Positions 17,180 through 47,075 of a stretch of DNA of 64,000 nucleotides are shown piece after piece (the stretch's first letter is position 1; each line of letters opens with the position of its first letter). The stretch covers positions 136,364-200,363 of IMG/VR virus record IMGVR_UViG_3300048672_000970; one strand, 5' to 3'. The DNA comes from a virus (taxonomy: Duplodnaviria; Caudoviricetes). A program made the position numbers and the translations under genes. The notes under the pieces were generated by a model. The model was not told where the DNA came from, ran no database searches, and saw only the letters and a program-made list of their open reading frames with translations.

Positions 17180-18300
17180 TTGGGTGTCCAAACGAGCTAA
17201 AACGGCCTAGGAGCGATTTGATAGTGGAAGGTGGGCACAGGTAGCTTGACGGATGAAATCGGCTCTAAAGCCCGTTAACCGCGTCCTGGCTGCATGTTCT
17301 TATTTGCCACCTAAAGGAATTTACTGAATGGATGGAAAAGCCGGTAGGTCAGTCGGTTGTCGGTTGGTTCCGTTCAGAGAAAGGTTCGTAGCCGGTTCTT
17401 AGTTGGTTAGCTCAAGTTTCAGGTTGGCTTCCGGAATTGATTTAACGGCTGTTAGCGCGTTCTTAAGCTGCATAGACTACCTAGGTAGCTCATTGAAAGA
17501 AAACGGCTCTAACGTCCGTTTAAGCCCCTTCCTAGTCAATTCCTTATTTGTCACCTAAAGCAATTTCTCAGAATTGGTTAGAAAAGCCGGTAGGTCAGTC
17601 AGTCAGGCAGTCAGTCAGTCAGTTCACTTGAGTTAGTTCACTTGAGTTAGTTCAGTTCAGATGTGTGCAAACAGATTGACTAAACGGACGTTAGAGCTTC
17701 TGATTAGGTAGATAGCTACCCATGTAGCCAGATGAACAAAAATGGCTCTGAAGCCCGTTAAACGCGTTCTAGAGGTACTTCCTTATTTGTCACCTATAGG
17801 TATTTCTCAAAAGAAGTGAGGAAGGGGCTGGTAGGTCTGTTAGGTTGATTGGTTCAGAGAAAGACTCAGTTGACTGAATGCAGGGCTGGCTTGACTGCTT
17901 GTTAGAGCAGCAAACAGCGAATGTGGTCGGTCAACTGCTGAAGCCCGTTAGGGCTGAGGTTATGAGTACAGAAGTAGTTGACTAACGCGCTGTTAGACAT
18001 CTGTTAAACGGGCCATAGCGCGATTAGAAAGGGTGGTAGCTACGTGGGTAGCCTAGCGGATGAAATCGGCTCTATGACCCGTTTAAGCCCCTTACAAGTC
18101 AATTCCTTATTTGTCACCTAAGGGTATTTTACAAATGAGTGGAGAAAAGCTGGGTAGGTGGCTTGGTTGGTTAGCTCACAGAAAAGCTTAGTTGAGTAGT
18201 GGCTTGAGACAGCTTGCTGCCGGTAGGCTCAAGATGCGAAAGGACTACTCAACTACTGAAGCCCTGTAAGGGCTGAGGTTAGGTAATGAGATGGATTAGG
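17180..18300 (+). repeat. Non-coding repeat array A (4 units, spacing ~240-325 bp)
   Basis: Core cttatttg(t/c)caccta at 17299, 17543, 17782 and 18106, each preceded by ggctct..(cc)cgtt(t)aa; no ORF of 60 aa or more in 1.2 kb. Confidence 0.9.
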
Positions 18301-18322
18301 TATTGGTTCAAAAAATGCTGAG

Positions 18323-18328
18323 TAAATA
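18323..18328 (+). promoter_or_regulatory. T4-type late promoter (TAAATA)
   Basis: Upstream of the giant ORF; overlaps the 6-bp hairpin tgagta/tactca. Confidence 0.7.
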
Positions 18329-18343
18329 ACTACTCATGAAGGA

Positions 18344-21300
18344 ATGACACAAATGACCAAAAAAGATTACACATTGCCTTATCAGGAACTAGCCAAGTTC
18401 ATTTCCCCTAACTTACGTAATTCAGTTAACGTCTCTATTACCAAGAACTTGTTCGACCGATTCCTCACTCAAAATGAATCAGCTCCTTTTTACGGGTATG
18501 TGGGTAACAATCCTGGCACGGTCACGCAACGTTTGGCAACTGATGTAGAACAAGATATCAATCACATCGTTCCCCTGTTTTCGTTCAATCAAGGGAAAGA
18601 GGAATTTATTTTCACTGAACAGGATTTGGTCAACAAAGCGAAAGCGATTGGTCTGACGGCCAATTTAGAAGATTGGCTAGCTGCCCAAGGGAACAACTTC
18701 TGTCCGCCAATCTCACTGGACAAATTTACCAATTTCTTCAATTACTACTACACGGCAAATGCGCTTGATTACAAACCAGTGATGGGATGGAATCAGACGA
18801 ACGCGCCTGAATACTACTGCATTGAAAAGCCGGCTAATGGAAGTTTAACCAAACTGAACGTTGATGTGGCGACAACCGAATTTATTGTCCCTACTGGTAC
18901 TGGTTTTGCCAATCAACTTTTCACGGTCACTTGTGTCAATAACACCGTATCTGAGTTACAATTCAGTGTAGCCAATGTGGGTGCCCTCGGGGGATGGGTT
19001 CCTGTCAGTGGTGCCAATTCGTTCACTATGCCTAAAATTAACTCAGGGTTAGTGAATACATATACTCATTCATTTGCCGTCTCAAAAAACGGCGTGACTA
19101 AAACTCTTATCACGTTCGACATCGTATGCGACCCGTTATTTGATACTGAATCCAATCTCATTGGTTATGAATCCTTTAACGTCGGTGACACTTTATCGAT
19201 TGATGCGAAATTTATCTCATCAGTCTATTCTGTTTCATTTACCGGCTCAACGGGCATCAAGGGTAAAGTGAAAAATGTCAAGACCCTCGCTGCTTATCAA
19301 GTCATCAATAATGTCCAGTTGCAAAAGGGTATGCGAGTTCTTGTCAAGAATAACGCCGGTTCAGAAAATGGAATTTATACGGTGTCTGAACAGAGCTGGT
19401 CATTTGCGGAAGATTTTACTGCCGGTTCTAATGTCAATGCGGAAGTATTTGACATTCACGGGCAAAGCCGGTATCGAGCTGTTTCGGTTACCGGGGGCTA
19501 TTCATTTGTCCAATCCGGTTCAACTTCATTGACAAATGATTGGCAAGAGCATAATTACTGGATGCATATTTCAGAAGTGAATGCACGTGGGTTAGACTTG
19601 GCTAAAATCCAACAGGCAGTTCGACCGATTATCGAGTACAAGAATTCAGTTCAACTGAATTCATTTGTGGCTAACGGCCGCCCAGCTTCTTCCGGAACGG
19701 CTTACCAGCAAACTAAGCAAAAGTTCAATCAGTTTCCGCTGTTCGATTTATTCAATCATGATGGCACTCATTCCGGATTCGTATCACCAATTTTCTTCTA
19801 TGAAGAATCAGTGAATGGACAACTGGACGTTAAGTTACAGAAGCGAGTTGCCAAGTCAGATTTCCTGTCCGCTGATTTCCTTTTCAATCACGGCCTAATG
19901 GATGGCGATAAGGCATTATTCTTCAAAGAAGCTGGTCAGATGAAATCCATTTGGACGGATGGCTATTCCAGTTCAACTATCATTTCTTCCTCTTTCACCG
20001 GAACTGGTAACGGAACTATTTCTGTTCAGCTAACAGGTAAAAATATCCCTGAACAAATTTGGACGTTGAATGCATTGAATGCATCTTCGTTCAAACTGAC
20101 TGGTAATTCATTTTCAGGTAATGAATTGGTGTCAATTGGGCAACTGTACTCGAATGAATATTTCACCATTCAAATTGTTAATGGAAGCATTCCGTTTCAA
20201 GTGAATGATTCGTACACGTTCGTTACTGCCGGCAAAAATATTCCGGAATGGGTTGTTAAGCAGAACGACAAAACGAACATGGTGTTACTGAGCGAAAATG
20301 GCACTTATACCGTGCCAATGTCTTTTGTTCATAATGTTAAAAATGAACATCAGGCGACTTTGCAGGAAGGGGCGTTATATTCTCACTTCAGAGATATTCT
20401 TAATAAGGGAGTATCGAACAAGTTTGGCGGCGCCATCAAATCATGGAATGACCCGGTGAATATTTTCATCGGATTGATGATGCAAAAAGACATTAACCCA
20501 TTGTCATTGATTGATTATGCGCAGCGTAGTTATGAATCGGCTTCTAACTCAGTTATCGATTTATACGTGTCAAAAATTCTGCAATATGTCGCTGATGTCA
20601 AAATTCCTTCCGCGAAAGAATTTGCCGACTATGCGTTAAGTGAACTGCTGAAAAGTCGAGATGTCAAGCAAGTGTTTTATGATACGACCAGTCTGGCAGG
20701 GTTTCCGATTACGTTGCCAATGATGGGATTTACTGCGCCAGTGATGCCGCAAATCGTCCATGTGAACGAACTGGACGGGCAATTTATCCAGCATCACGAT
20801 GGACACAAGAGTCCGTTATTTGCCGACACCTATCAATTATTCGAGCGGATGTTTTCTAACAAGACGACTGTCAATAAAAACGGTGCTGAAGTTGAAATCC
20901 TGTTGTCAACGACTGTCGAGCCAACCACCCCGTTCAAGGGCGCGATGTGGATTAATAACACCAGTTCCGCGTCTTCTATCAAACTGTTTGATGTAACGTC
21001 AGATGCGAATAATGCGCCGAGCAATCCATCAGCCGGAACGACTTGGCTGAATACTCAGACTAATCAAGCATTTGAGTATGATGGCACTGGTTGGATTTAC
21101 AAAAACAAATCTGACCTATGGAAAGAAATGAAGTTTGGTGAATTACTCAACTCAATCATCATCGAAATTGAATCGAGACTGTATGACAGGTGTTATGCCA
21201 GTCCGATAAATCTTTCCATTCCGAATATGGAACAGGAATACATTTCGTGGGCGACCGCTAACAAATATAAGCCATACGCTTCCATCGCCAGTGAAGACCC

Positions 21301-26560: not shown

Positions 26561-26563
26561 AAA

Positions 26564-30505: not shown

Positions 30506-30528
30506 CCCTAAGTTAAAGGAGTGATGAA

Positions 30529-32233: not shown

Positions 32234-32245
32234 AAGGAAATATAT

Positions 32246-32887: not shown

Positions 32888-32888
32888 T

Positions 32889-33542: not shown

Positions 33543-33543
33543 T

Positions 33544-34191: not shown

Positions 34192-34263
34192 GTTGAAGCA
34201 GCCCCTTCAAAAACCCGCTGAACAAATGGAAGCTTAATTTTGTAACAAAGTGTAAAAGGTTTC

Positions 34264-34292
34264 TTGACTGGCTTGCTACCAGTCGTTATACT
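34264..34292 (+). promoter_or_regulatory. sigma70 promoter TTGACT-17-TATACT
   Basis: Near-consensus -35 and -10 with a 17-nt spacer; the inverted repeat gactgg/ccagtc spans the spacer. Confidence 0.75.
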
Positions 34293-34322
34293 CTACCCAT
34301 ACCAATTTACTGAGAGAAAAAC

Positions 34323-34931: not shown

Positions 34932-34933
34932 TC

Positions 34934-35518
34934 ATGCTCATCGAATTGTTTGAGCGCCTTGCTACCAATACGGCTTCAGCAGAAGATTGGGCAGCATTTG
35001 AAGTAGAGAAATGCCTAAGAGTTGTTTTTGATGCAGATAATCTATCGCAAGGGATTATTTTTTATTTCAACACTTCAAAACACTTCACGCATTCTGGGCA
35101 GGTGGTATTTTTCCCATTAGTATCACCACTAATAGCTGTTCACGATGCAGACGCAGGATTTGGAAACATGCCGAAATTTTCAGCCGGAGCTATTTCGGGC
35201 ATCATCCAATGCAGGGGAACGATGGATGAAATATGCAAGAACGAAATAGCTAAACTAGATAACCGAGATGAATCTACCCAACCTAACTATACCCGTCTCG
35301 CCAGTGAGTTAAAATCGTGTGAACAGTATGAAGAACTGGTTGAATCAATGTGCGCTAAAATCATTGCGTTTACCAGACAGCCACACGTTCCATTAACCCA
35401 TGATGAATGGTTTGGCGGCGCGAGTATTGCCCACATCCGCACTCTCCTTCATAAATTTCTTTTCAGTGAATACTACCTGAGAAATCGGGTACAAAAGTTC
35501 CACACCAAATCATTGTGA
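34934..35518 (+). CDS. Paralog array member 6 (short tag MLIELFE)
   Basis: LKSCEQYEELVESMC...EWFGGASIAHIRT. Confidence 0.8.
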   Translation: MLIELFERLATNTASAEDWAAFEVEKCLRVVFDADNLSQGIIFYFNTSKHFTHSGQVVFFPLVSPLIAVHDADAGFGNMPKFSAGAISGIIQCRGTMDEICKNEIAKLDNRDESTQPNYTRLASELKSCEQYEELVESMCAKIIAFTRQPHVPLTHDEWFGGASIAHIRTLLHKFLFSEYYLRNRVQKFHTKSL

Positions 35519-35549
35519 TACAATGAGCTTTCTTGTATCTTTTTGAAAG
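35516..35549 (+). promoter_or_regulatory. 34-bp repeated extended -10 promoter element, copy 1
   Basis: tgatacaatgagctttcttgtatctttttgaaag; 32/34 identical to 36200-36233. Confidence 0.7.
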
Positions 35550-35556
35550 AGGTAAT

Positions 35557-36186
35557 ATGCACCAACGTAAATTAAATTTACTTGATATGGTTAAACTACC
35601 CTCAACCCCTTTTATTAAGCCGCCGTGGTATGATTCGCTGAAAGCGGTGAGCGCGCGAATTGAAGCCGCGCTGCCACCCCCATTAAAATATGATGCATGG
35701 GTTGAGTGCAATTGGTTCATCCCAATCAACGATAGGGATGCATCTGTAACTGGATTTATAGTTTTATTTTTCCTTAACGTCTATCACCTCCCCGACGACC
35801 CGGCGACGAAGATCGCGGTGTATGACATGGATACTTTATCGCGTCGGGTCATCAAATTGACTCCATTAGAAGCAGCGATAAACGCTATACAATTATCTAC
35901 GCAGAAAATAGTAGATGATTGTATATCAGATGCGTCAAACTACAAAGAACGTGCTGAAGCCATTGAAAATGTAAAGAATGTTTTGCAAGAAAACGATGCA
36001 TATAATGATGCCATTGACACTTACTTTCGTGAAATACTTTATTTGTGTAGAGTTAATGACCTCCCGTATAACGTGATGTATGGAGATAAAAACATCGCGG
36101 ACGTTAGAAAAGCATTCTTTTTCCATATGTTTGAAACGTTCGCTGCAGATTTGGTTGATATTCATGGTCTTTACCAAGCAGCCTAA
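35557..36186 (+). CDS. Paralog array member 7 (untagged)
   Basis: GAGGT RBS before ATG 35557; LNLLDM; LQENDAYNDAIDTYF...LPYNVMYGDKNIADVRK. Confidence 0.85.
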   Translation: MHQRKLNLLDMVKLPSTPFIKPPWYDSLKAVSARIEAALPPPLKYDAWVECNWFIPINDRDASVTGFIVLFFLNVYHLPDDPATKIAVYDMDTLSRRVIKLTPLEAAINAIQLSTQKIVDDCISDASNYKERAEAIENVKNVLQENDAYNDAIDTYFREILYLCRVNDLPYNVMYGDKNIADVRKAFFFHMFETFAADLVDIHGLYQAA

Positions 36187-36199
36187 CGCGACCTTAACA

Positions 36200-36233
36200 T
36201 GATACAATGAGCTTTCTCGTAACTTTTTGAAAG
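36200..36233 (+). promoter_or_regulatory. 34-bp repeated extended -10 promoter element, copy 2
   Basis: tgatacaatgagctttctcgtaactttttgaaag upstream of the M16 peptidase. Confidence 0.7.
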
Positions 36234-36241
36234 GACTACAC

Positions 36242-37564
36242 ATGGCAACTCTATCCATTATTCATCCGCGCTACCATAACATCGAATACTCTGTTATGGA
36301 TTTGCCCGGAACAAACTTCTTCAAGTTTGAAATCCATTCTGAAATGGGTGCTCATATTGAACGGTCTTATCCAAAGACGTTACCGGAACATGAAACCAAG
36401 AACATTTATGGCATTTCTCATTTGATTGAGCATATGTCGTTCAAGAGTCCGGCTGATTACACGACCGACGGGCTGATGGCTAATCTGAAACGGTATGGCA
36501 CTTATAACGCCTGGACAAACTTTGAAGAAGTGGCTTATTACTTTGAAACACTCGCCGACCGAGAAAATGTCATGTGGGCGATTAGTATGGTGTTTAACAT
36601 CGCTTTCAATGATTTGAGCAAAGTTACTCAAGAAGAATTTGAAACTGAACGAAATGTCGTCTATAACGAAATCAAACGTTATCATGATGATGCCCAAACT
36701 ATGTTCAGTTTCAGGTTTTCACCTAATATCTATGGCAACAATGAATTTGACGACATTCTCGGCGACCCGGAAACCCTCATCAAATTCGACCTTGAAACTT
36801 TGCAAGAAGTGAAGCGCATCTTTATTAACGAAGCGCCGCTGACGATGACCATCACCTATGATTCTACACGTATGAATCTGGATGATATTTTCAGCATGAT
36901 TGACGCTGAACGGGAAAAACTGAACCCAATGCATCCGAAGCTGGAGTACACGTATGACATGTACCTAGAAGGCATCAAATCGGTCGAATGGGACTACCGG
37001 ATTAAGCAGGTGGCTTCAGATGCTTCCCAGCACCTTTACATGGCTGCTATCCGCGTTCCTGTGCCTGAGATGTCAGTTCTAGCCCGCGCATGCGCTTCTT
37101 ACATCGGACAATCTGCCCATAACGAAAGTTTGAACGAAATCATTCGTGAACAGCATGGCCTCACCTATGGCATTTCATTCAGTGTTGAAGAAATGACAAA
37201 TAAAGAACTGGCGATGGTTTTCTCATGCGATGTCGAACCTCAGAATGCTGATTTACTCGACACTCTGTTTGTTGATACTCTCCGGGCAGTAGTTGAAAAT
37301 CTGACTGAAGAAAAATTCAACAACTATAAAGAAACTTTGCTGCTGAAAGATACGATGGCTCTTTTGAACCAACGTGCGCTGATGAATCTACACAACTGGC
37401 CTAATAATTGCACTGATTTTGGCAAGTATGAAGAACTGTTCAAGGAAGATGGCATGAAGGGGCGGGAGAAGGTTTTTGCCGAAGTGTTGACTTATCCTAA
37501 ATTCCTGAGTTACTGCCAACGAGTAGTTGCGGGGATGGATAGTATGATTCGCATTCACACTTAA
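36242..37564 (+). CDS. M16 (insulinase/pitrilysin-like) zinc metallopeptidase
   Basis: Inverted zinc motif HLIEH, YNAWT, ETERNVVYNEI; C-terminal IREQHGLTYG; AAGGA RBS before ATG 36242. Confidence 0.9.
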   Translation: MATLSIIHPRYHNIEYSVMDLPGTNFFKFEIHSEMGAHIERSYPKTLPEHETKNIYGISHLIEHMSFKSPADYTTDGLMANLKRYGTYNAWTNFEEVAYYFETLADRENVMWAISMVFNIAFNDLSKVTQEEFETERNVVYNEIKRYHDDAQTMFSFRFSPNIYGNNEFDDILGDPETLIKFDLETLQEVKRIFINEAPLTMTITYDSTRMNLDDIFSMIDAEREKLNPMHPKLEYTYDMYLEGIKSVEWDYRIKQVASDASQHLYMAAIRVPVPEMSVLARACASYIGQSAHNESLNEIIREQHGLTYGISFSVEEMTNKELAMVFSCDVEPQNADLLDTLFVDTLRAVVENLTEEKFNNYKETLLLKDTMALLNQRALMNLHNWPNNCTDFGKYEELFKEDGMKGREKVFAEVLTYPKFLSYCQRVVAGMDSMIRIHT

Positions 37565-37565
37565 C

Positions 37566-37590
37566 AAAGGGGCTTCGGCCCTTTACTTTT
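37566..37590 (+). terminator. Intrinsic terminator (cUUCGg loop)
   Basis: aaagggg-cttcgg-ccctttacttttt. Confidence 0.75.
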
Positions 37591-37592
37591 TG

Positions 37593-37598
37593 TAAATA
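37593..37598 (+). promoter_or_regulatory. T4-type late promoter (TAAATA)
   Basis: After a terminator, upstream of ATG 37616. Confidence 0.7.
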
Positions 37599-37615
37599 CT
37601 GATTTGGACAAGTCT

Positions 37616-38860
37616 ATGAAACTATCACATTTATTTGAATCTACATCCGGGGGAACTGATTGGTCAGAATGCTGGAAAAATCCGACTGGAAATGATGTTT
37701 CATCGTTGATATCGAGCGAATTTGTATTATCAAAAGATGAAGGGTTCCTAGGTCTGCTGTTTGCGCATGTGCAAGATTTGGTGATTAAATTCGATTCGCA
37801 GCGAACCATCAACGGCTGGTCTACGGATACAGTATCACTGAATTCTATTTGCTATGATGGCTCGGATATGGGGCACTTTCTATTCACTCAAACGGAAACA
37901 CTTAAAGGGCTCTACCAACAAAATAAAGAAATTACGGATGAAGAATCGGCAGAAGATTTCCAAGACAAAGTGGAAGACTTTGCCGGCAAAATTATCAAGC
38001 ATCGAATTGAAATTGCCGCAAAGTTATTTGGTATGACGCAGAAACAGTTGTTCGGTAGTTTACCTTCCACCACGGGTGGTCTGTCAAGGAAACTGATGGA
38101 AATGTTCCTGATGCTCCGTGAGCATAAACAGGTGTTAGTTCATGAGTCAGATGAACTGAAAGTGTATAAAATCATGCCAGGACACGCTAAAATCGTAACA
38201 AATATCGTTGAAAAGAAATTTGGCGATAACGTATCTTTCTCTTGGTACGATTTCCGGTCAGAGTTTGGATTTGGCATCTGCATCAATCAGGGTGACGCTG
38301 TTCATACTTATGATTTGAGTAAATCTGAATACATCACTTACACTAAATTCTATACCGTACAGATAAATCACAAACCCAAAATCATGCGTGGTCAATATCA
38401 ATTCAAAACGGTGGCTGATTTGAAAAAGTTCGATAGTGTCCATTGTGAACATGTTGTTGACTTTGCCAAATCTATCAAATCCGATTTCAAGCTGACTGAA
38501 TTTGGTCATCCACGCGGACCAAGTGTATTTCTAGGTCTTGTACCGGACAGTGCCTTCAGCGACTATATCAAACGAATTAGTATTAAGATGGAATCTTACA
38601 CGCTTTCCAGACTTGAAGAACTTGAAGAAAGCCAAGGGTTCAAATTTGATGACATTAACAAAATTGCTGAGTTCTTCGCCGACCGATCACGTAAAACTAA
38701 ATTACTGACCGCCATCAAATCGGTCATCAAATCGGGTAATACTGGAATGTTTGAAAAGGGGCTGAAATCCTTTATGACAGAGCTTGCAGCAAAGCAAGGT
38801 TTTTCTGCGCATGACCTATCATCCGTCAACCACTATATCAATACGTGTTTCGGCTATTAA
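37616..38860 (+). CDS. Paralog array member 8 (tag MKLSHLFES) with an extra C-terminal domain
   Basis: AEDFQDKVEDF...MTQKQLFGSLP...SRK in the first half. Confidence 0.8.
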   Translation: MKLSHLFESTSGGTDWSECWKNPTGNDVSSLISSEFVLSKDEGFLGLLFAHVQDLVIKFDSQRTINGWSTDTVSLNSICYDGSDMGHFLFTQTETLKGLYQQNKEITDEESAEDFQDKVEDFAGKIIKHRIEIAAKLFGMTQKQLFGSLPSTTGGLSRKLMEMFLMLREHKQVLVHESDELKVYKIMPGHAKIVTNIVEKKFGDNVSFSWYDFRSEFGFGICINQGDAVHTYDLSKSEYITYTKFYTVQINHKPKIMRGQYQFKTVADLKKFDSVHCEHVVDFAKSIKSDFKLTEFGHPRGPSVFLGLVPDSAFSDYIKRISIKMESYTLSRLEELEESQGFKFDDINKIAEFFADRSRKTKLLTAIKSVIKSGNTGMFEKGLKSFMTELAAKQGFSAHDLSSVNHYINTCFGY

Positions 38861-38867
38861 GGAATAT

Positions 38868-39563
38868 ATGAAACTGACCAACATATTTGAATCTTCCACC
38901 CCTTCTGCAATCGATTTTATTGAAAAGTTCAATAGCGTCTACAAAGGGAAATCGGTACCAGGGCTGCATACCATGTTCTACGGACTATCTCATAATCCAT
39001 TACAGTGGGGGAATATGCGAATTGATAGATATACCATCCTGTACGATAGTTCATCCCGTGACCAACGACTTTCGCCAGTGCTTAAAGAGCATCTTCCATC
39101 GGGGCATCATATTATCACTGGACATCTGTATGGATTGTTTGAGGCGGTATGTTTCGGCAGCGCGCAGCTTAATAATGCTGCTGCATTCATCGATTTAAGT
39201 AAATCAAATCACATTACAGATATTCCACTTTCAAAATTACATAATGTCTTGTCGGCGCTAGCCCGCCAAATGATAGTCACCCTGGATGAAATGCGAAATG
39301 AAGGCATGCACCCGGATATGGATGATTTGCTTGCTGATGAAGAAGTGAGTGACTGCCTTGATGAAGTGATTGACGTATCAGAGCAAATCTGCCACAATGC
39401 CATTGTGAAACTTGGCATTCCGATGCAAGTAATGTTAGGTGAATACCGACCAATGCAAATTGGCAAATTAGTCAGAGATTATTTCAAATATTGCGGGATG
39501 ATTGATTTGGAAGAAGACGCTGATGCCGCCGATGATAGCGGCGAGTGGGAACCGGAGGATTAA
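38868..39563 (+). CDS. Paralog array member 9 (tag MKLTNIFES)
   Basis: AIDFIE; LLADEEVSDCLDEVI...IPMQVMLGEY; AAGGA RBS before ATG 38868. Confidence 0.8.
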   Translation: MKLTNIFESSTPSAIDFIEKFNSVYKGKSVPGLHTMFYGLSHNPLQWGNMRIDRYTILYDSSSRDQRLSPVLKEHLPSGHHIITGHLYGLFEAVCFGSAQLNNAAAFIDLSKSNHITDIPLSKLHNVLSALARQMIVTLDEMRNEGMHPDMDDLLADEEVSDCLDEVIDVSEQICHNAIVKLGIPMQVMLGEYRPMQIGKLVRDYFKYCGMIDLEEDADAADDSGEWEPED

Positions 39564-39959
39564 ATGAATGTGCATACCATTGCTGATAACTTACCTTGCA
39601 ATTTGATTGACATTGCCAATCAATGTAAAAGTTCGGCTGAGTTTTCGGCAGTGAATGAGCATTTCAATTTGTTATCATCTGGAGGCGACATTAAAGTCCT
39701 TCCAGATGATTTCAGATTCTCAGGTATTCTGGCTCTGATGTCTACTCGCAAATTTCAGAATAGTAACCCTTCGTTAAGTATCAGTCGGCAATTGGATAAA
39801 GATACTGAAGAAGCGGTTGATACATGGCGAGAAAATTTGACCGAGTATTTTATGCGAATGAAGCGGCTCGGGTTCACTCATACTCAGTTGTTCGGAAATC
39901 TGTCGGCAGTTGATTTCAAATACTGGCTGAAAAAACAACAAACGCGCAGCATGCCATAA
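39564..39959 (+). CDS. Paralog array member 10 (short, untagged)
   Basis: NLIDI; DKDTEEAVDTW...FTHTQLFGNLSAVDFK. Confidence 0.7.
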   Translation: MNVHTIADNLPCNLIDIANQCKSSAEFSAVNEHFNLLSSGGDIKVLPDDFRFSGILALMSTRKFQNSNPSLSISRQLDKDTEEAVDTWRENLTEYFMRMKRLGFTHTQLFGNLSAVDFKYWLKKQQTRSMP

Positions 39960-39981
39960 AAACTGATTTACTGGATACACA

Positions 39982-41001
39982 ATGAAACTTACTTCACTAT
40001 TTGAATCGGCAGGTAAAAATTGGGCGGATGCTCATCTTGAACCTGTATTGGCGGATGGCATCAAGCAAGGCGATAAAATAACTTTCGATACTGCCACCGA
40101 CACTGGTTTGATTTATCTGATTGTCAAGTCTTTTGGCGATTTTCAAGCTGTTTACATTGATGACGCCCTGCTGATGGACATTCCAGAGTATGAAAACTTC
40201 TTAACAGAACATAACGAGTTTGATGAATTCTTCACGTTCAGGCATTTCTCTGGTTCAGATGAGGATGATGAACTGATTGAAAATGCTGCTACCGATTTGC
40301 TCAAACTGGCGCGGCGATTGCAAGATGCTATAAACCTTCCACGAGGAAAATATTTTGGTAATTTAGCTCAAACTGTTGGCGCGATTGAGAAATTACTCCG
40401 GGCTGCAATCGTGCAGTATCAGAAAGGTGTCACACTGAAAGTGCAGCATGCCGAAGATGAAAAAATGCATGTTGAACTGTTCAAAGACGGCGACGGGCAG
40501 TTACGACCTAGACTGATGTCCCTCTGTGGATTCTCGGAGGAACAAGCATCAACGGCAGTTAGATTGCTTCGCACTAGATATTTCGTTTCAGCCCGGTCGT
40601 GCAACCTGCTAGTGATTAAGGAAAATATCCCTTACTTTATTATGCTGGGTGGAGTAGCAGCGACTATAGATGTTGTCAGATTGGATGCATCATCTGAGCA
40701 AACTACTTTTGAGTTCTCTGCGGAGAACTATCCCGGTCTTGATAAAATGTTCCCAGGTATCACCACTACTATCAAGAATCTGACTAAAAATGGAGAGTAC
40801 ATAAATAATTACCTGTATTTTGAACATACTACCTTTAATCATTTCCCGATGGTGTTCCTACATGGCGATGTTCTCTCCAGACTGATTATAAATCGTAGCA
40901 TTGATTTGGAAAAACTTAAAGTTGCCATTCCAAAAGCGTATACGCAGGGTGATAAAATCTTCCCGCTGCAAAGGGTGATAAAATCTTCCCGCTGCTGCTA
41001 A
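39982..41001 (+). CDS. Paralog array member 11 (tag MKLTSLFES) with an extra C-terminal domain
   Basis: DEDDELIENAA...LPRGKYFGNLAQTVGAIEK. Confidence 0.8.
   Translation: MKLTSLFESAGKNWADAHLEPVLADGIKQGDKITFDTATDTGLIYLIVKSFGDFQAVYIDDALLMDIPEYENFLTEHNEFDEFFTFRHFSGSDEDDELIENAATDLLKLARRLQDAINLPRGKYFGNLAQTVGAIEKLLRAAIVQYQKGVTLKVQHAEDEKMHVELFKDGDGQLRPRLMSLCGFSEEQASTAVRLLRTRYFVSARSCNLLVIKENIPYFIMLGGVAATIDVVRLDASSEQTTFEFSAENYPGLDKMFPGITTTIKNLTKNGEYINNYLYFEHTTFNHFPMVFLHGDVLSRLIINRSIDLEKLKVAIPKAYTQGDKIFPLQRVIKSSRCC
40946..40995 (+). repeat. 24-bp direct duplication (period 26) at a gene 3' end
   Basis: agggtgataaaatcttcccgctgc at 40946 and 40972. Confidence 0.95.
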
Positions 41002-41079: not shown

Positions 41080-41113
41080 AATGGAGGTTGATAAATACTT
41101 GTCAACCTCCATT
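41080..41113 (+). promoter_or_regulatory. 12-bp hairpin with a late promoter TAAATA (41092-41097) in its loop
   Basis: aatggaggttga / tcaacctccatt followed by ttttt. Confidence 0.75.
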
Positions 41114-41120
41114 TTTCCAT

Positions 41121-43076
41121 TTGGCTCGAAACGAACAAATCAAGCGCGCAGGTACTGAATGTGAATATACACCTGAGCAAGTGCAAGAGTTGCGCAAGTG
41201 TATTACAGACCCTATCTATTTCATTACCAACTATGTCAAGGTATCACACCCCACTAAAGGGCTAGTACCTTTCGCCCTATACGAATACCAAGAGCGACTG
41301 ATTAGGCATTTGCACTCAAGTAGATTCTCGATTCTAAATCTACCTAGACAACAAGGTAAAACAATCACATCAGCCATTTATCTATTCTGGAAGTCACAGT
41401 TTACCAGTAATGGCACATTTCTCATCGCATCAAAAAACGAATCTCACGCGAAAGAGATTGCAGCCAGAATTCGAGTCGCATATGAAAATTTACCAAATTG
41501 GCTGAAAGCGGGTGTCAAACTGTATAACATGCACATGATGGAATTTGACAATGGTTCAAAAATTATCTGTGAAGCAACTACCGATAAAACCGGGCGCGGG
41601 CTTGCTATCACTTGTGTAAGTGGTGATACTGAAATCACCACTCGGCCAAAAGACTGCCCAGAATATCTGCAAGCTGGAACTACCATTCAAATCTCGCAAC
41701 TGGCGTTAGGTAACTTTCCAGATACAGACCAGCTAAAAATTGACATAGCTGAATTAGAAATTCTAACACCATCTGGTTTTGAATCTTTTGATGGCATCGT
41801 CATCACGCCTGACAAGCCGTTACTTGAAATACAATTCAATGATGGGTCACATCTGAAATGCACCCCTAATCATTTACTTTTAGTTGATGGTGTATTCAAA
41901 TCGGCTGACCTGCTAACGCCCGAAGAAAATGTTAACGGATTATATGTAATCAGCATTACTCAACTACCTGGACTACATCCGGTCTACGATTTGATAAACG
42001 TTGCTGACCACCATACTTACAAAACAAATAACGTCTATAGCCATAATTGCATCTATCTTGATGAGCTTGCATTCATCAGTAAAACCATTCAGCAAGAGAT
42101 GTGGACTTCGTTACAACCGGCTATCTCGACTGGTGGGTCAATCATTATTTCTTCTACACCTAACGGAGATACCGACCTTTTCGCTAATCTGTGGCGTGGC
42201 GCTCCAGAAAATGATTTCATGCCATTTTCTACTCATTGGAGTGACCATCCAGATAGAGGGCCAGAGTATTATGATCTGATGCTCAAACAGCTCGGCCCGG
42301 TTAAAGTCCGTCAAGAAGTTGATTGCGAATTTCTATCATCAGACGCATTGCTTATCAATTCAATCGCACTCAATAACATCCGTTCAGTAAAACCTACTTT
42401 CACTTCGTTAGGGTTCGATTTCTGGATTCCTGACAATTCAGTGAAGGGTGAAGGGACGACTTACCTTATCACTCTCGACCCGTCTACCGGTTCATTACAA
42501 GATTCATCAGTTATTGAAGTATTTGAATTCCCTTCGTTGAATCAGGTGGCTGAACTACACCTAGATGATGTTAACATCCCTTTAATCTATTCTAAACTGA
42601 AATGGATTATCAAGTATTTTGCTGTCAATGGGGCAAATGTGTTATGGACGTTTGAACGTAATGGAATTGGCGAAGCAGTTGGCGCATTACATTTCAATGA
42701 CGAGAACTTTGAGTTCCCTGGCTCTGATAACGTCTCAATCGTCTCAGATTTGGACAAGATTGGTTTATTCACTACCCCGGCTAAAAAAATTACGTTCTGT
42801 TTGCAATTGAAACAGTTGGTCGAACAAATGAACGGATTGAACATCCGTTCAGATTATCTGTTGAAAGAACTGAAAAACTTTGTCGCTGCTGGTGGAACCT
42901 ATAAAGGAAAATCTGGATATCATGATGATGCCGTGATGGCAACTGTCCTGACGATGCGATTGCTAAAATATTTGGCAGAGTACGATGAAGCTGCATTCAA
43001 CCAAGTGAACACTTACATTGATGAGGAAGCAAGTATTGACGATTCGGATGCGTGCGTTCCATTCATGATTAGTTAA
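41121..43076 (+). CDS. 17: Terminase large subunit (T4 gp17-like) containing a mini-intein
   Basis: CITDPIYF, Walker A LPRQQGKT, YLDELAF, SSTPNG, nuclease D residues (LDPS, HDDAV). TTG 41121 gives MARNEQIKRAG; TTG 41088 is the alternative start. Confidence 0.95.
   Translation: MARNEQIKRAGTECEYTPEQVQELRKCITDPIYFITNYVKVSHPTKGLVPFALYEYQERLIRHLHSSRFSILNLPRQQGKTITSAIYLFWKSQFTSNGTFLIASKNESHAKEIAARIRVAYENLPNWLKAGVKLYNMHMMEFDNGSKIICEATTDKTGRGLAITCVSGDTEITTRPKDCPEYLQAGTTIQISQLALGNFPDTDQLKIDIAELEILTPSGFESFDGIVITPDKPLLEIQFNDGSHLKCTPNHLLLVDGVFKSADLLTPEENVNGLYVISITQLPGLHPVYDLINVADHHTYKTNNVYSHNCIYLDELAFISKTIQQEMWTSLQPAISTGGSIIISSTPNGDTDLFANLWRGAPENDFMPFSTHWSDHPDRGPEYYDLMLKQLGPVKVRQEVDCEFLSSDALLINSIALNNIRSVKPTFTSLGFDFWIPDNSVKGEGTTYLITLDPSTGSLQDSSVIEVFEFPSLNQVAELHLDDVNIPLIYSKLKWIIKYFAVNGANVLWTFERNGIGEAVGALHFNDENFEFPGSDNVSIVSDLDKIGLFTTPAKKITFCLQLKQLVEQMNGLNIRSDYLLKELKNFVAAGGTYKGKSGYHDDAVMATVLTMRLLKYLAEYDEAAFNQVNTYIDEEASIDDSDACVPFMIS
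41613..42047 (+). mobile_element. Mini-intein (145 aa, no homing endonuclease) in the terminase
   Basis: Starts CVSGDT, block B CTPNHLLLV, block F VYDLINV, ends SHN followed by extein C. Removal restores GRGLAIT-CIYLDE. Confidence 0.92.
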
Positions 43077-43079: not shown

Positions 43080-43096
43080 AGTTTTTGGGGTAGGGT

Positions 43097-43585
43097 ATGA
43101 TAGCAAGTCAGAGTATTAAAAACATGATGTGGCGAAGGGGATTTATTCAATCACTTGGTGGGCAAAGTTTATCTCCAGTGGAAACAAAAACCGTTACCAT
43201 TATGATTTTGGGAGGAACCCCTCCAGCTAATCTGGCTACCGCTAAAGCCAATTGGTCGATGTATAACGCCACTACCCCAAATTTATTAGGATTTGTCCAA
43301 GTGACTTTATCTGAAGTTCAATTGGGGAAATATATGGTGGCAACTGATTGGGCGAGAACAGGTATTAACGCCATGAATAATGGTATCGCATCATGGGCAG
43401 TATGTTTTGGTGATTATGGCGATGCGAGTGCAGCATGGAGTGCTGCAACTATCCCTGATACAGTGGCGTTAGCAATGATTTCAGTTTCTGACATCACCGG
43501 CACTGCACCCTTAAGATTACTGACCACCACTTTGCAAAGTGGTGAACCCTTTTTTATCACTGACATGGGATTCATGAACGTATGA
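43097..43585 (+). CDS. Putative virion/tail-fibre-associated protein
   Basis: IMILGGTPP...NGIASW pattern shared with the next gene. Confidence 0.7.
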   Translation: MIASQSIKNMMWRRGFIQSLGGQSLSPVETKTVTIMILGGTPPANLATAKANWSMYNATTPNLLGFVQVTLSEVQLGKYMVATDWARTGINAMNNGIASWAVCFGDYGDASAAWSAATIPDTVALAMISVSDITGTAPLRLLTTTLQSGEPFFITDMGFMNV

Positions 43586-44103
43586 ACAAAGTAGAAATTT
43601 ATTCACCTGAATACAGTTCGTCCATCACCCATTTTAACGGTATCTCCATTGCCATTCCTGGTTTAGAAGAATTACAAGGGCTGTTATCCGGTAATGCAGC
43701 GTCATCGACCAACTACACCTACATCAAAATAATGAAGGGAACGGTGCCAACGTCGTTAGCCGGCTTCAACCTTGATTATCGCGCATCAGATGAGTTGATG
43801 CGGTTTTCAACTGGTCAAGGGCGCATTCCTAGTGGTTCGCAAGATTTCTCGGTATCATTTCCGTCCTGGCATGAAGTTAACATTTCTTCCAATGTCTTAC
43901 CGGCCGTTAACGGAGGGACTGCCACTTGGTTCTTGCTTGAATCGATAAGCAGTGTGGGCAATATTTGCCATCAGTTGATTGGGACGGTTGGCTTGCCAAA
44001 CTCGGGTGCAGACCTTGAGTTATCAAATACTACACTCATTCAAGGGTCTTCATATCACATCGTCAAGTTTTATATCAATTTCAACTATTTTTGGAGCGTG
44101 TAA
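43582..44103 (+). CDS. Putative virion/tail-fibre-associated protein (related to the previous gene)
   Basis: IKIMKGTVP...GGTATWF...GTVGLPNSGADLELSNT. Confidence 0.75.
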   Translation: MNKVEIYSPEYSSSITHFNGISIAIPGLEELQGLLSGNAASSTNYTYIKIMKGTVPTSLAGFNLDYRASDELMRFSTGQGRIPSGSQDFSVSFPSWHEVNISSNVLPAVNGGTATWFLLESISSVGNICHQLIGTVGLPNSGADLELSNTTLIQGSSYHIVKFYINFNYFWSV

Positions 44104-46166
44104 TGTACAGCGCAGGCATCGGCATTTACGCCGCATTAAAAAAGTATAACGTTGTTTCGTTCAATGTTCAGTATTCGGTCAGCAACTTCAATCAACCATA
44201 TAGGAATATATTCACGGTTAAGTCTGGTAACATCGTTTTCGATGTCGATGCCAGACTGAGTTATAGAGGGTTGAATTTCCAAACTACCGACATGCCGTTT
44301 GTCAAAAACCGCACCTACATTCCGGCTGATGGACAGTATTACAAAAACTACTATTTCTATCGAGGGACAAATTCCACGTTTGAAAATGATGCTTCGGAAG
44401 GAGGCATTGCCGATTTCTATTCGACGTACAATTATGGTGCGATGAGATTTTCGGGCGCATCAATGGTCACGGCCAATAAGAAAACTCCGTTTCTGAATAG
44501 CATGCATTCTTCCACTGGCAAATACACCATTATCATGTGGGTTAGATTAGGCGATAGAACGGTATCTAACGGCGGTGTGTTGTTTGATAGCGGAACGAAC
44601 AACGGATTCAACGGCATTCAAATAGGCGAGATTGGTAATGCATCTGGCCTCAATTTGAATAACTTATCATTCACTATCAAAAACTCTGACACTATCTTTG
44701 ATTTGAGTTCCATTAGTAACGTCAACTTGGGTACACATCGGGTGCAAGGTATTGCGTTAAGTATCGATTGCACCGGTGCATCCAATTCATTTGTCAGAAC
44801 TTTTAGAGGTGGTAATGAATATCCAGTTTTCAATCTAGCTTCATATTTTGCTTCAGCTACTGGTTCTTATTCCGCATGCCCAAATTTCGCTCGGATTGGT
44901 GCTGATGCAAATGGAACTAGAATTGTTCCTGATGGCACGACTGTTTTCAGTGTGAGAACCTATAACACCAATTTGACGGCTTCAGAAGTCTATGATGAAT
45001 TTTTGCAGCAAGCACATCAGTTTGACCCGTTACTCATTTTAGATGCGTCCAATTCGCCAACCATCACTAACAATTTCATCACTGATAATTCAAACTATGC
45101 GGTGGAATCATTACTCCAAAATACTGCTCCTGAAACTGCCCCTGCTGAGTTATTTTGTGCAACATCAATTCCAGTGGGAAGTAGTGCGAAATCAATCAGG
45201 TTGCGTCTCGGCTTGATGGCTAATGAATTGATGTCGAATGACTACACGATGAAATTTGTGTTCAGTATGCCGTCTGCTTCATCAACCTCCGTTTTTTATG
45301 CGAGTGATGATGGCAGTATGGAAATTTATTATCGCACTTTTTCAAACGAGATAGTTATCAATCATTCAAACGGAACAGCAACATTTCCAGTGACGTTATC
45401 CGCCAATACGAAATACATGCTGACTATCACGTATCGGCATTCATATTTCTATGTTCATCTGAACGGTGTTGCCATCTCTGGCACAGTAGCTGTCAATAGA
45501 CCCGCACTCAGACTGGCTACGGCCGCATATGCATACATCGGTTCATCACCAAACCGAAACTCATCTTCACAAATCAATTTGAAGTATGTCGTCTTTTACC
45601 CATATGCCAAATTTGATTCATACGATTACAATGCGACGTTACATGAAGATGATAACGCCCCTTTCCAAATTTCTGCACCCGCTTATCCAGTTGGCATGAA
45701 ACGTTATCTGAAGTTATCCAATTTCATTTTCGCCACTGGAACTTCAATGCAATTGGTCGGCATCGAACTCATTAGCATCTATGGGTCAAATATGGAACAA
45801 GAAGCAGGATTGATGGCTACTGAACTGCCGGACAACTATGATTTCAATATCTTACAAGATTCCATGCCATTTTCAAAACTAGAAACTCTATATGGTGCTA
45901 CCACCTATTATGTCTCCAAGACAGTATCCACCAATACAGTCCTTGTATATGATTTTGGGTTATCTCGAACCACACTTGAACCTTTAGCCGGAATTCGCAT
46001 ATCTTGCAAGAACGACAACTATCCCACTTCGTACACTGTATGGCGAAGTGATGACGGAATTGTTTGGGATTCTCAAATTGTCGTAACTGGTCAAACCAAC
46101 CCCGGAAACCAATGGAACAACGTAGCCATCGGTTCATTAATGTCCGACCCATTACTCAGTGCTTGA
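44103..46166 (+). CDS. LamG/concanavalin A-like domain fibre or receptor-binding protein
   Basis: YTIIMWVR, SVRTYNTNLTASEV, second LamG-like unit (YMLTITY...VHLNGV); TAATG overlap gives start 44103. Confidence 0.75.
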   Translation: MYSAGIGIYAALKKYNVVSFNVQYSVSNFNQPYRNIFTVKSGNIVFDVDARLSYRGLNFQTTDMPFVKNRTYIPADGQYYKNYYFYRGTNSTFENDASEGGIADFYSTYNYGAMRFSGASMVTANKKTPFLNSMHSSTGKYTIIMWVRLGDRTVSNGGVLFDSGTNNGFNGIQIGEIGNASGLNLNNLSFTIKNSDTIFDLSSISNVNLGTHRVQGIALSIDCTGASNSFVRTFRGGNEYPVFNLASYFASATGSYSACPNFARIGADANGTRIVPDGTTVFSVRTYNTNLTASEVYDEFLQQAHQFDPLLILDASNSPTITNNFITDNSNYAVESLLQNTAPETAPAELFCATSIPVGSSAKSIRLRLGLMANELMSNDYTMKFVFSMPSASSTSVFYASDDGSMEIYYRTFSNEIVINHSNGTATFPVTLSANTKYMLTITYRHSYFYVHLNGVAISGTVAVNRPALRLATAAYAYIGSSPNRNSSSQINLKYVVFYPYAKFDSYDYNATLHEDDNAPFQISAPAYPVGMKRYLKLSNFIFATGTSMQLVGIELISIYGSNMEQEAGLMATELPDNYDFNILQDSMPFSKLETLYGATTYYVSKTVSTNTVLVYDFGLSRTTLEPLAGIRISCKNDNYPTSYTVWRSDDGIVWDSQIVVTGQTNPGNQWNNVAIGSLMSDPLLSA

Positions 46167-46199
46167 GTAGTGATTATACATCAACCTTCTCTGAACCCA

Positions 46200-47075
46200 C
46201 CAACCCAACCAGCCCCTTCCCTCACTTCTTTTGTGAAATACCCATAGGTGACAAATAAGGAATTGACTAGGAAGGGGCTTAAACGGACGTTAGAGCTGTT
46301 TTTGTTCATCAGGGCAACACGGGTAGCTAACTGAGCTAACACCTGTTCTAAAGCCCGTTAAACGCAACCGAACCAACCGACTGACCTGCTGGCTTTTCTA
46401 TCCATTCATAGAAACTGCTTTAGGTGACAAATAAGGAACTACCTCTAGAACGTGGTTAACGGGCTTTACAGCCATTTTTCTCTTTCAGGCTACCCTGGTA
46501 GCCATCCGTTATCCAATTCGTCTTAGAGCCTGTTTTTAGCCATTACCTAACCCAACCCTCAGCCCTTACAGGGCTTCAGCAGCCAAGCAGTTCTTTCGCA
46601 TCTTGAGCCTACCGGCCACAAGCTGACTCACGCCACTGCTTGACTGAGTTTTTCTGTGAGCTAACCAATCAAGCCACCCACTAAGCTCTTTCCGCTCAAT
46701 TCTTCAGTTCATTTGAGAAATACCTATAGGTGACAAATAAGAACATAGGTCTAAAACGCGTTTAACGGGCTTTAGAGCCGTTTTATCTCATCAGTCTACC
46801 TGGGTAGCCAACAGGTCTTCAAACGCGCTAACAGCCGTTAAATCAATCAAGAACTAATGAACAAGCAACCATTCAATGAACCTTTTTCTGAATGGAACCA
46901 ACCGACTGACCTACCGGCTTTTCTAACCAATTCAGTGAAACTGCTTTAGGTGACAAATAAGGGAATGCCTCTAAAACGCGTTTAACGGCCCGCTACAGCC
47001 GATTTCATCCAACAGGCTACCTATGCCTACCCTCCACCTACAAAACGCTCCTAGCGCGTTTTAGCTGGTTTGCTT
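46200..47075 (-). repeat. Non-coding repeat array B, inverted counterpart of array A
   Basis: Core taggtgacaaataag at 46245, 46421, 46727 and 46947; 46822-46847 is the exact reverse complement of 17436-17461. Confidence 0.9.

Follow-up and report, generated by a model that had tools for sequence, protein, structure and literature searches.

The window analysed here, a stretch of 64 kb, comes from an IMG/VR phage contig of 200 kb, whose completeness is approximately 56%. The source is an uncultured freshwater jumbo phage with a genome of around 360 kb, of which approximately 35 to 44% is unseen. Two gaps of the window are occupied by repeat arrays, array A (17188..18286, plus strand) and array B (46167..47072, minus strand). 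As described in the original prediction, no other gap of the window reaches 1 kb; neither of the two contains an ORF of at least 100 amino acids. Array A starts around 10 nt after the terminator of the upstream gene, which encodes a protein of 460 amino acids and whose symmetric hairpin (17148..17178) directly abuts the array. At the other locus, the body of the last module of array B abuts the stop codon of a gene encoding a lectin-like fibre protein of 691 amino acids. A TAAATA late-promoter-like box of the gene for a 2738-amino-acid virion protein is located outside array A (18323..18328, plus strand), and the TAAATA box of a gp32-like SSB gene (start at 47622) lies outside array B (47538..47543, plus strand).

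Both arrays consist of four modules, which are of type 2, type 2, type 1b and type 1a in array A and of type 2, type 1a, short type 2 and truncated type 1b in array B. Each module contains one copy of a 15-nt core, CTTATTTGYCACCTA. The cores of array A are found on the plus strand at 17299..17313 (A-u1, the sole copy with a C at position 9), 17543..17557 (A-u2), 17782..17796 (A-u3) and 18106..18120 (A-u4), those of array B on the minus strand at 46947..46961 (B-u1), 46727..46741 (B-u2), 46421..46435 (B-u3) and 46245..46259 (B-u4). This number is non-random, as eight matches compare with 0.01 expected and none of 100 shuffles reached eight. The reported exact inverted match of 26 nt between 17436-17461 and 46822-46847 is real, and the matching block near 18220-18240 turned out to be part of a longer inverted match of 139 nt and 84% identity (18145-18283 and 46552-46690).

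The two arrays were proposed to be a unique pair that brackets the whole block of virion genes; however, searching the parent contig for further copies of the core revealed 17 cores in five ORF-free arrays (A1 to A5, with the orientations + - + + -), of which array A is A4 and array B is A5. A sixth array is located on a related second contig of 32.6 kb (IMGVR_UViG_3300048672_001166, the L031 record), which brings the number of modules to 19. One composite non-coding element is thus present in at least five copies in the contig and in six or more in the lineage, and arrays A and B are two of these copies. Baseplate and tail-lysozyme genes lie around 100 kb away beside other arrays, so that arrays A and B do not enclose all virion genes. 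What stands is the description of ordered, non-random, non-coding arrays with repeats resembling protein-binding sites; all proposals built on it assumed a special pair, and since the arrays are not a pair, this premise was wrong.

The arrays are approximately 0.9 to 1.2 kb in size, have a GC content of around 47% (genome, 44%) and lack an AT-rich unwinding region. Their repeats are spaced 176 to 349 bp apart without helical phasing, and the forward, core-bearing strand is G/T-rich and C-poor. In the contig, the core is restricted to the arrays even when up to two mismatches are allowed. The neighbours of the arrays are fibre, baseplate and SSB genes as well as genes of unknown function, and no array lacks an adjacent late-type promoter of a gene for virion structure or replication. 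The flanking genes carry their own outward-facing TAAATA boxes (43 of the 72 boxes in the contig are located at most 120 nt upstream of an ORF start), and three of the six arrays run antisense to the genes on either side. Arrays and neighbouring genes are independent of one another.

Each module is tripartite and comprises the inverted boxes of a region termed H1, the invariant 15-mer and a G/T-rich body. H1 consists of two inverted copies of a box of around 20 bp (consensus TTTAACGGGC-nTTAGAGCCGTT) round a GGTAGC palindrome, and H1 palindromes are present in every module. The box occurs 46 times, in the arrays only, and forms inverted pairs approximately 65 bp apart. The H1 regions, to which no strand is assigned, span 17196..17283, 17440..17527, 17679..17766 and 18003..18090 in A-u1 to A-u4 and 46977..47064, 46757..46844, 46451..46538 and 46275..46362 in B-u1 to B-u4; their distance to the core is constant (22 bp). 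The H1 arms pair with the 3' arm of their own module (-17.65 kcal/mol) as well as with the arms of other modules (-17.67 kcal/mol), and 17 G·T compared to 15 A·C combinations reveal no strand bias. As the arms do not co-vary, H1 looks like a site acting at the DNA level. The 15-mer is kept in all 19 modules, with a T at position 9 in 18 of them and the C in one, despite a divergence of 13 to 45% in the flanking sequence. The palindrome ACCTATAGGT is formed in nine of the 19 modules; the core is not dyad-symmetric in the other ten.

The strongest signal, which the original prediction missed, resides in the module bodies, where base pairing is compensatory and strand-specific. A D1 region pairs weakly. 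The bodies of type 1 modules additionally contain the D2 domain, whose stem of 11 to 12 bp shows many compensatory changes. Here, 92% of the cells are paired, compared to 25 to 42% with slid partners, and double changes are found in 15 of 28 pairs, which was reached by none of 500 shuffles. The D2 helices contain 27 G·U but only 2 A·C combinations, and the forward fold is the more stable one in nine of nine type 1 bodies (-57.4 versus -44.3 kcal/mol). Both the compensatory changes and the excess of G·U over A·C indicate that the core-bearing strand folds. A second strand-specific signature is CCGGTAGG, whose 11 occurrences are confined to the arrays and to the forward sense. Within the window, D2 and the terminal hairpin are located at 17855..17959 in A-u3 (plus strand, variant 1b; -46.6 kcal/mol, z -4.9), where the co-varying 11-bp stem and an inner hairpin are followed by AGCCC-loop-GGGCT, at 18179..18278 in A-u4 (plus strand, variant 1a with the inner hairpin CC-GGTA-GG; -40.2 kcal/mol, z -3.9) and at 46557..46656 in B-u2 (minus strand, variant 1a; -40.5 kcal/mol, z -3.2); the fold z-scores range from -3.2 to -4.9. 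The folded domain is probably RNA; G·T wobbles are, however, also tolerated in folded single-stranded DNA, so that co-variation alone does not prove this. The body of A-u2 carries (GTCA)n and 14-nt tandem microsatellites (17585..17660, plus strand), and (GGTT)n takes the place of (GTCA)n in other arrays. The contigs of run X1 seem to be cut at the A-u2 microsatellite.

No small-protein gene was detected in the modules: a single recurring ORF lacks a start in six of 17 modules, stops after five to eight codons in six of 17 and shows no third-position excess. Covariance models of Rfam release 15 gave no match in the window at the gathering threshold, and at E <=5 only weak terminator-like matches at 17100-17226, outside the modules, were obtained.

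In 16 of 17 cases, the nearest relative of a module is found in another array. The modules thus cluster by position across arrays, which identifies the whole tripartite array as the duplicated unit. The D2 structure was kept after duplication through compensatory changes. Truncated copies exist as well: the end of a gene truncates B-u4, and half of H1 is missing from the second module of the L031 array. A homologue search did not find the element in related cultured phages; as the family is limited to one lineage, the evidence from co-variation comes from paralogues only.

We consider it the best explanation, with a probability of about 0.45, that each array groups several genes for structured non-coding RNAs, all of which have regulatory DNA of their own. 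According to this model, an ancestral element of three modules would have spread in its entirety to a number of intergenic positions, in one orientation or the other, and each module would be a small transcription unit. Its upstream layer would be duplex regulatory DNA, in which the box pair, presumably bound by a DNA-binding protein, and the small palindrome precede the core at 22 bp. The core may serve as a promoter or recognition element deviating from the sigma-70 consensus, and transcription would start a few bases past it. In the downstream layer, selection would favour folding of the single strand that reads from core to body, with a G/U-rich D1 and, in type 1 modules, D2 with its 11-12-bp stem, inner tetraloop hairpin and terminal hairpin. 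The predicted products are structured RNAs of approximately 100 to 190 nt or one precursor of around 1 kb that is cut into them; the terminal hairpins, however, carry no U-tract that would mark the 3' ends. With at least 19 gene copies and no antisense target of the module RNAs in the contig, the RNAs would be likelier to bind or sequester a protein than to pair with mRNA. A precedent is the distantly related jumbo phage PA5oct, in which abundant ncRNAs were defined by RNA-seq at ORF-free loci without known promoters (PMC7318152).

Further findings speak against this model. Promoter searches revealed no sigma-70-like site in 16900-18500 or inside array B, and TTGTCA within the core has no -10 partner at a distance of 16 to 18 nt. 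The core shows what we take to be a likeness to ...TCAC(C)TATAGG / TTTAGGTGACA of T7-type promoters; a T7-type promoter in front of protein-coding operons was rejected, since the core is confined to the arrays. No gene for an RNA polymerase or a sigma-70-family protein that could read an unusual promoter was found in the contig. The single-subunit RNA polymerase family PF00940 was found neither in the 200-kb contig nor in the 32.6-kb L031 contig nor in the Ralstonia phage RsoM2USA, a result to be read with approximately 35 to 44% of the genome unseen and with uninformative control genomes.

A possible but less probable explanation is that the arrays are cis-acting DNA elements similar to the hr regions of baculoviruses, which would be recognised by a viral protein and act as origins of replication, as enhancers of nearby late genes or as both. 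Baculovirus hrs consist of three to eight repeats of around 64 bp with an imperfect palindrome and function as origins and enhancers (PMC4535591). The dispersal of five to six intergenic arrays in both orientations, the partly palindromic box and the late-type promoter beside every array would fit such a role, and several origins are plausible for a genome of this size. Moreover, A1 and A2 coincide with strand switches and with the cumulative GC skew minimum; however, this minimum is confounded with gene orientation, and A3 to A5 show no inflection. Given the box, the iteron-like sites proposed earlier are not unreasonable. The GC content above the genome mean, the unphased wide spacing and the lack of an initiator gene linked to the arrays speak against an hr-like function, and duplex binding sites do not need compensatory, G·U-tolerant pairing of one strand. 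In a variant of this hypothesis, a G-rich transcript starting at the core might form an R-loop that primes DNA synthesis, as in T4 oriF/oriG and ColE1; the G/T-rich, C-poor forward strand would favour such RNA-DNA hybrids. Both views could be combined in a phage counterpart of hrs with an RNA layer, in which each module would be a protein-gated launch site. Its invariant core would fire a structured, G-rich RNA that remains bound to the DNA, where it would prime replication or load the machinery of late transcription for the adjoining structural genes. We regard this as unlikely.

It is also unlikely that the arrays represent repeats of a selfish or decaying family (MITE- or BIME-like) without any function for the phage beyond that of a recombination substrate. 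The presence of the whole element at unrelated sites, the truncated copies, the expansion of microsatellites inside modules and the absence from cultured relatives are in line with this hypothesis. A1, A4 and A5 also coincide with synteny breaks relative to RsoM2USA; as synteny with this phage is broken almost everywhere, however, this is weak evidence. On the other hand, no transposase, recombinase of the serine or tyrosine type or reverse transcriptase gene is present in the contig, the invariance of the 15-mer and the maintenance of D2 would not be expected, and a genome of limited size would probably not retain around 5 kb of useless DNA.

Very improbable is the proposed inversion, in which the arrays would be crossover sites for flipping a segment through a site-specific invertase or UvsX-driven homologous recombination. 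In its favour, A1/A2 (7.8 kb) and A4/A5 (28 kb) form inward-facing inverted pairs, inverted matches of 79 to 139 nt with 74 to 84% identity link the arrays, a UvsX/RecA-like recombinase is encoded by the phage, the segments contain or adjoin fibre and baseplate genes, and the terminase and gp32 genes are oriented differently to each other than in RsoM2USA. However, the longest exact inverted match, with its 26 nt, is a poor substrate for homologous exchange, neither A3 nor the L031 array has a partner, A3 and A4 are arranged as direct repeats, and inversion would switch no evident promoter-gene relation, as the genes carry their own promoters. A Gin/Hin/Cin-type invertible segment was rejected because no serine or tyrosine recombinase (PF00239, PF00589) is encoded in the 200-kb, 56% complete contig and because the core lacks the dyad symmetry of a crossover site in ten of the 19 modules.

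These findings correct the view of the arrays as limits of an invertible virion block. Jumbo phages contain many unexplained non-coding stretches, among which the arrays are unusually tractable owing to the invariant 15-mer shared by 19 paralogous modules, the 46 copies of a candidate protein-binding box and helices with compensatory support. If the modules are RNA genes, they would represent a new structured RNA that is modular, present in multiple copies and equipped with a non-canonical promoter of its own, in a virus apparently without its own polymerase; if they act in cis, they would be a rare hr-like multi-origin or enhancer architecture in a phage, and if both apply, the phage would possess several identical, co-regulated origin or enhancer nodes. 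Either way, the core, the box and D2 are concrete probes for experiments.

Several known systems share individual features with the arrays. CRISPR arrays contain near-identical repeats of around 24 to 48 bp and unique spacers of similar length; the arrays described here were excluded from this class, as their period is 176 to 349 bp and the "spacers" are homologous across modules and arrays. A true CRISPR-like array is present elsewhere in the contig. Iteron origins possess phased direct repeats of 17 to 22 bp beside an AT-rich unwinding element, in most cases together with an initiator gene; this type was dismissed on the grounds of the inverted boxes, the GC content and the neighbouring genes. 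In T4 oriF/oriG and ColE1 RNA II, a promoter is followed by a transcript whose folding or G-richness gives rise to an RNA-DNA hybrid that persists. Several origins are known from T4-type phages, some of them beside fibre and recombination genes; to our knowledge, the T4 origins have no sequence in common and are not arrays. GOLLD and ROOL are long structured ncRNAs of phages and lake metagenomes with unknown function, and both are contained in Rfam. As far as we know, they are single-copy and lack internal repeats, whereas the modules are multi-copy, internally repeated and match no Rfam model or other described RNA family. PeSL cassettes of T4-type phages are likewise repeated composite non-coding motifs of a stem-loop or palindrome and a promoter-like box, are scattered over the genomes of T4-related myoviruses and are associated with rearrangements (PMC2839356; PMC4122927). 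However, they are short, contain near-consensus sigma-70 boxes (TTGACA-N17-TATAAT or variants) and flank small ORFs of hyperplastic regions (PMC2839356; PMC4122927). The arrays have no detectable sigma-70-type early promoter by a stem-loop, flank large structural genes and differ further in their long modules, folded non-coding body and fixed three-module arrays; they were therefore not classified as PeSL cassettes. Baculovirus hrs resemble the arrays in forming several dispersed intergenic arrays per large dsDNA virus with an imperfect palindrome per repeat (PMC4535591), as found here for five arrays plus one. Their repeats of around 64 bp are uniform and act as duplex DNA bound by IE-1 (PMC4535591), whereas the modules are three to five times longer, position-specific, equipped with strand-specific co-varying helices and found in a virus with a bacterial host. 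The ncRNA001-004 of the jumbo myovirus PA5oct, whose baseplate wedge protein is 37% identical to that of this phage, are neither repeated nor modular and share no sequence similarity with the arrays or with one another; like the arrays, they originate from ORF-free loci (236 to 619 nt) without known promoters, and two of them are very highly transcribed (PMC7318152).

The core motif CTTATTTGYCACCTA occurs at positions 17299, 17543, 17782 and 18106 on the forward strand of the window and at 46245, 46421, 46727 and 46947 on the reverse strand, four matches in each set, with 0.01 matches predicted from shuffles. This confirms the coordinates of array A (17188-18286, forward) and array B (46167-47072, reverse). 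The arrays occupy the only gaps of at least 1 kb in the window, and both are devoid of ORFs of at least 100 amino acids. A repeat finder recovered the exact 26-nt inverted match between 17436-17461 and 46822-46847, and a series of further inverted matches (79 to 139 nt, 74 to 84% identity) links the two arrays. While the original prediction was correct in these respects, its view of the arrays as a unique pair does not hold: the window covers bases 136364-200363 of a 200,363-bp IMG/VR phage contig, which contains 17 cores, all of which lie inside five ORF-free gaps of about 1 kb and none elsewhere. Three modules each are found in A1 (contig 51.8-52.8 kb, forward), A2 (60.6-61.5 kb, reverse) and A3 (122.4-123.3 kb, forward), and four each in A4 and A5, which correspond to the forward array A and the reverse array B of the window.

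Each module starts with H1, a region of about 88 bp that forms a long imperfect hairpin when folded on paper, followed by a linker with a constant length of 22 bp, the invariant 15-mer core and a G/T-rich body 3' of the core. All bodies open with the region D1, which contains a GAAAAGCCGGTAGG-like sequence plus variable (GGTT)n or (GTCA)n microsatellites. In type 1 bodies, D1 is followed by D2, a stem of 11 to 12 bp enclosing one of two inner hairpin variants (types 1a and 1b), and by a terminal AGCCC-loop-GGGCT hairpin; D2 is absent from type 2 bodies. The first module is of type 2 in every array. Modules group with those of the same rank in other arrays rather than with their neighbours in the array, and for 16 of 17 modules the closest relative is found in a different array. 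Duplication and dispersal therefore acted on a three-module element. A4 and A5 gained one module each, and in A5 the end of the fibre gene cuts the final module short. Tetranucleotide microsatellites in module bodies are located at window positions 17585-17660 and at contig positions 52,03x (A1u1) and 61,2xx (A2u1), with up to nine copies of (GTCA)n and up to six of (GGTT)n; their lengths vary among arrays, and (GGTT)n could form two-tetrad G-quadruplexes in the single strand.

A scan of IMG/VR with the 15-mer yielded 28 single chance matches and one contig with two matches, 171 bp apart. This contig, IMGVR_UViG_3300048672_001166 (L031, 32.6 kb), carries a sixth, two-module array of the same family at 7400-7900, which lies antisense to both neighbours, a GNAT-like gene of 133 amino acids and a gene of 417 amino acids. 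The 5' half of H1 is missing in its second module, which has kept the core and the full type-1b body. L031 has no similarity to the 200-kb contig at the protein level; both have near-identical terminator hairpins and equal GC, and L031 probably represents an unsampled portion of a related genome. The terminator family AAAAAGCCGGGC...GCCCGGCTTTTT is symmetric and consists of an A-run, a GC-hairpin and a T-run. Copies of this hairpin are located at window positions 17148-17178, 50899-50929 and 63252-63282 and at about 2657 and 22660 (L041/L042 of G001), and they are 96-100% identical between the two contigs, which otherwise have no genes in common. This identity is the best hint that the contigs belong to one lineage.

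The arms of H1 do not co-vary: the 5' arm pairs with its own 3' arm at -17.65 kcal/mol and with the 3' arms of other modules at -17.67 kcal/mol. Mismatches are balanced (17 G·T versus 15 A·C), and RNAalifold predicted almost no structure for the H1 alignment. The arms are more aptly seen as inverted copies of a partly palindromic box of about 20 bp with the consensus TTTAACGGGC-nTTAGAGCCGTT, which is present in 46 copies in the contig, all within the arrays. Judged by these patterns, the signature of H1 is like that of protein-binding sites on duplex DNA and unlike that of a selected RNA helix. The 3' box of A-u2, the second module of array A (17506-17522), is complementary in 17 of 17 positions to the 5' box of A-u3 (17681-17697), thus bracketing the A-u2 body; across all modules, inter-module box pairing was not above chance among boxes.

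D2 behaves in a strand-specific manner. Over ten copies, all of which are paralogues of one lineage, 92% of the D2 cells are in standard pairs, versus 25 to 42% when the partners are slid by one to three columns. Both sides have changed in 15 of 28 pairs, and none of 500 shuffles reached the observed values. Wobbles are one-sided, with 27 G·U versus 2 A·C, an excess far above the approximately 1.8-fold expected from base composition; in principle, folded single-stranded DNA could produce the same bias. The forward fold was more stable than the reverse in all nine type-1 bodies tested, and the three D2 copies of the window reach -40 to -47 kcal/mol (z -3.2 to -4.9). CCGGTAGG, the CC-GGUA-GG hairpin, is present in 11 copies in the contig, all of them within arrays and in the forward sense.

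The best explanation, to which we tentatively assign a probability of about 0.45, is that the arrays are small transcription units giving rise to structured non-coding RNAs. It is preferred because the DNA shows boxes, palindrome and core at fixed distances, a folded domain on the forward strand and independence from neighbouring genes. In each predicted unit, the box-palindrome-box-core region with its fixed spacing would act at the DNA level as the upstream part, and the folded forward-strand domain downstream of the core would be the structured RNA product. A sigma-70-type promoter could be detected neither within nor upstream of the arrays, and multisubunit polymerase and sigma-70 domains are absent from the contig. 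The core resembles what we take to be T7-group promoters (...TCAC(C)TATAGG forward; TTTAGGTGACA reverse); this likeness is weakened by the lack of a PF00940 polymerase gene in both the 200-kb contig, which is 56% complete, and L031, and by the fact that the core is never located 5' of a protein gene. By its sequence, the giant neighbour was ruled out as a virion RNA polymerase of the N4 type. The terminal hairpins differ from canonical terminators. Outside the arrays, 2 complements of conserved 12-mers were found in the contig versus 2.5 expected; since the contig contains no complementary target, modules that are RNAs would be more likely to work through protein binding or sequestration than in antisense.

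A1 and A2 are located in divergent gaps relative to their neighbouring genes, A4 is co-oriented with its flanking genes, and A3 and A5 are, like the L031 array, antisense to both neighbours. TAAATA boxes of the flanking genes lie at the array edges and face outward; in the contig, 43 of 72 occurrences of this motif are found at most 120 nt upstream of an ORF start. Array A starts about 10 nt past the terminator of the upstream gene. A further stretch of about 545 bp (47078-47621), which separates array B from the gp32-like SSB gene, is without a convincing ORF and contains sigma-70-like matches, terminator-like matches and a TAAATA box; it may serve this gene as a long regulatory leader.

The main rival, doubtful in our view, is that the arrays are cis-acting hr-like origins or enhancers, which are possibly transcript-primed. 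Their dispersal and the box of about 20 bp fit such a role, as does the location of A1 and A2 where the strand switches and the skew is lowest; however, the strand-specific co-variation would be left unexplained, and an AT-rich unwinding element is missing. Selfish repeats, an improbable origin, would account for the truncated copies and the restriction to the lineage, but are at odds with the invariant core and the compensatory changes. The invertible segment suggested by the original prediction is very improbable, as the 56% complete contig lacks a serine or tyrosine recombinase gene, the arrays lack long exact homology, and unpaired and directly repeated arrays would be left unexplained. 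Contigs from four DNA sequencing runs covering the arrays revealed only paralogue cross-mapping ('skips', 'goes back') and no strand-changing joint, with short, low-depth, near-identical pieces in runs X2, X3 and X5; they have no bearing on inversion, since assembled contigs cannot show rare isoforms. A diversity-generating (DGR) or retron reading was dropped because the contig lacks a reverse transcriptase gene.

The contig (GC 44%; completeness 56% according to CheckV) encodes a T4-type large terminase, a RecA/UvsX-like protein, a gp32-like SSB, a 2738-aa virion protein, a gp6-like baseplate wedge, an M23/GH108 tail lysozyme and an S74 tail fibre. According to the wedge protein, the closest cultured phages are Ralstonia phage RsoM2USA (44%) and XacN1, followed by Rak2-like phages, PA5oct and Atu_ph07. 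That arrays coincide with breaks in synteny to RsoM2USA carries no significance, since this synteny is interrupted almost throughout. DNA of the contig is contained in a run from a freshwater metagenome, and other aquatic runs have short pieces that are nearly identical; none of the runs listed was an RNA run. The window also harbours about 11 paralogous genes in tandem (31544-41001), each of roughly 200-440 amino acids. They are near-identical at their 5' ends (ATGAAACTG...TTATTTGAATC), have a conserved block inside the gene in common and correspond to the direct-repeat families D4, D5, D7 and D13 of the repeat finder. At residues 213-279, the large terminase (41088-43076, T4-type N-terminal domain) matches Intein_splicing weakly and below threshold, and it may hold an intein or intein remnant. 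Outside the window, a CRISPR-like array (contig 43,530-44,165) contains ten exact copies of the 28-29-nt repeat CTTTTAAGCCGCACGTATGGCGGCGAGG with a 61-nt period and unique spacers.

The apparently conserved peptide MKTALKPVKRVL...YLSPIG, whose frame spans H1 and the core, was rejected as coding: the start codon is lost in 6 of 17 modules, a stop follows after 5-8 codons in 6 of 17, and the frame is without third-position excess. Rfam gave nothing at the gathering threshold, and relaxing E to 5 brought up only terminator-like noise. ARAGORN found no tRNA, and neither array had a blastn match among 50,697 phage records. No syntenic relatives were found in IMG/VR via the 460-aa and 691-aa neighbour proteins; a search anchored on UvsX identified a single contig of 16 kb (59% identity) that lacks the core and shows no array at the corresponding position. 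The D2 covariance model found nothing in RsoM2USA, XacN1 or this UvsX relative. A first metagenome pattern scan returned 0 matches, and a second one for two cores 205-235 nt apart returned 8, all unrelated tandem repeats (GC 26-58%) without HMM or blastn similarity. A pattern scan of genome contigs gave one chance match within a Firmicutes coding region.

None of the known families passes a membership test. In the distant relative PA5oct, which depends on the host polymerase, ORF-free loci 'lacking known promoters' give rise to ncRNAs in abundance (PMC7318152); these RNAs have no sequence relation to the arrays. Dispersed palindrome arrays are shared with the baculovirus hrs (defined in PMC4535591), whereas the RNA-like layer is present only in the phage arrays. 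PeSL cassettes of T4-type phages have the idea of a stem-loop combined with a promoter in common with these modules; they are short, however, contain sigma-70 boxes and lie beside ORFs (PMC4122927).
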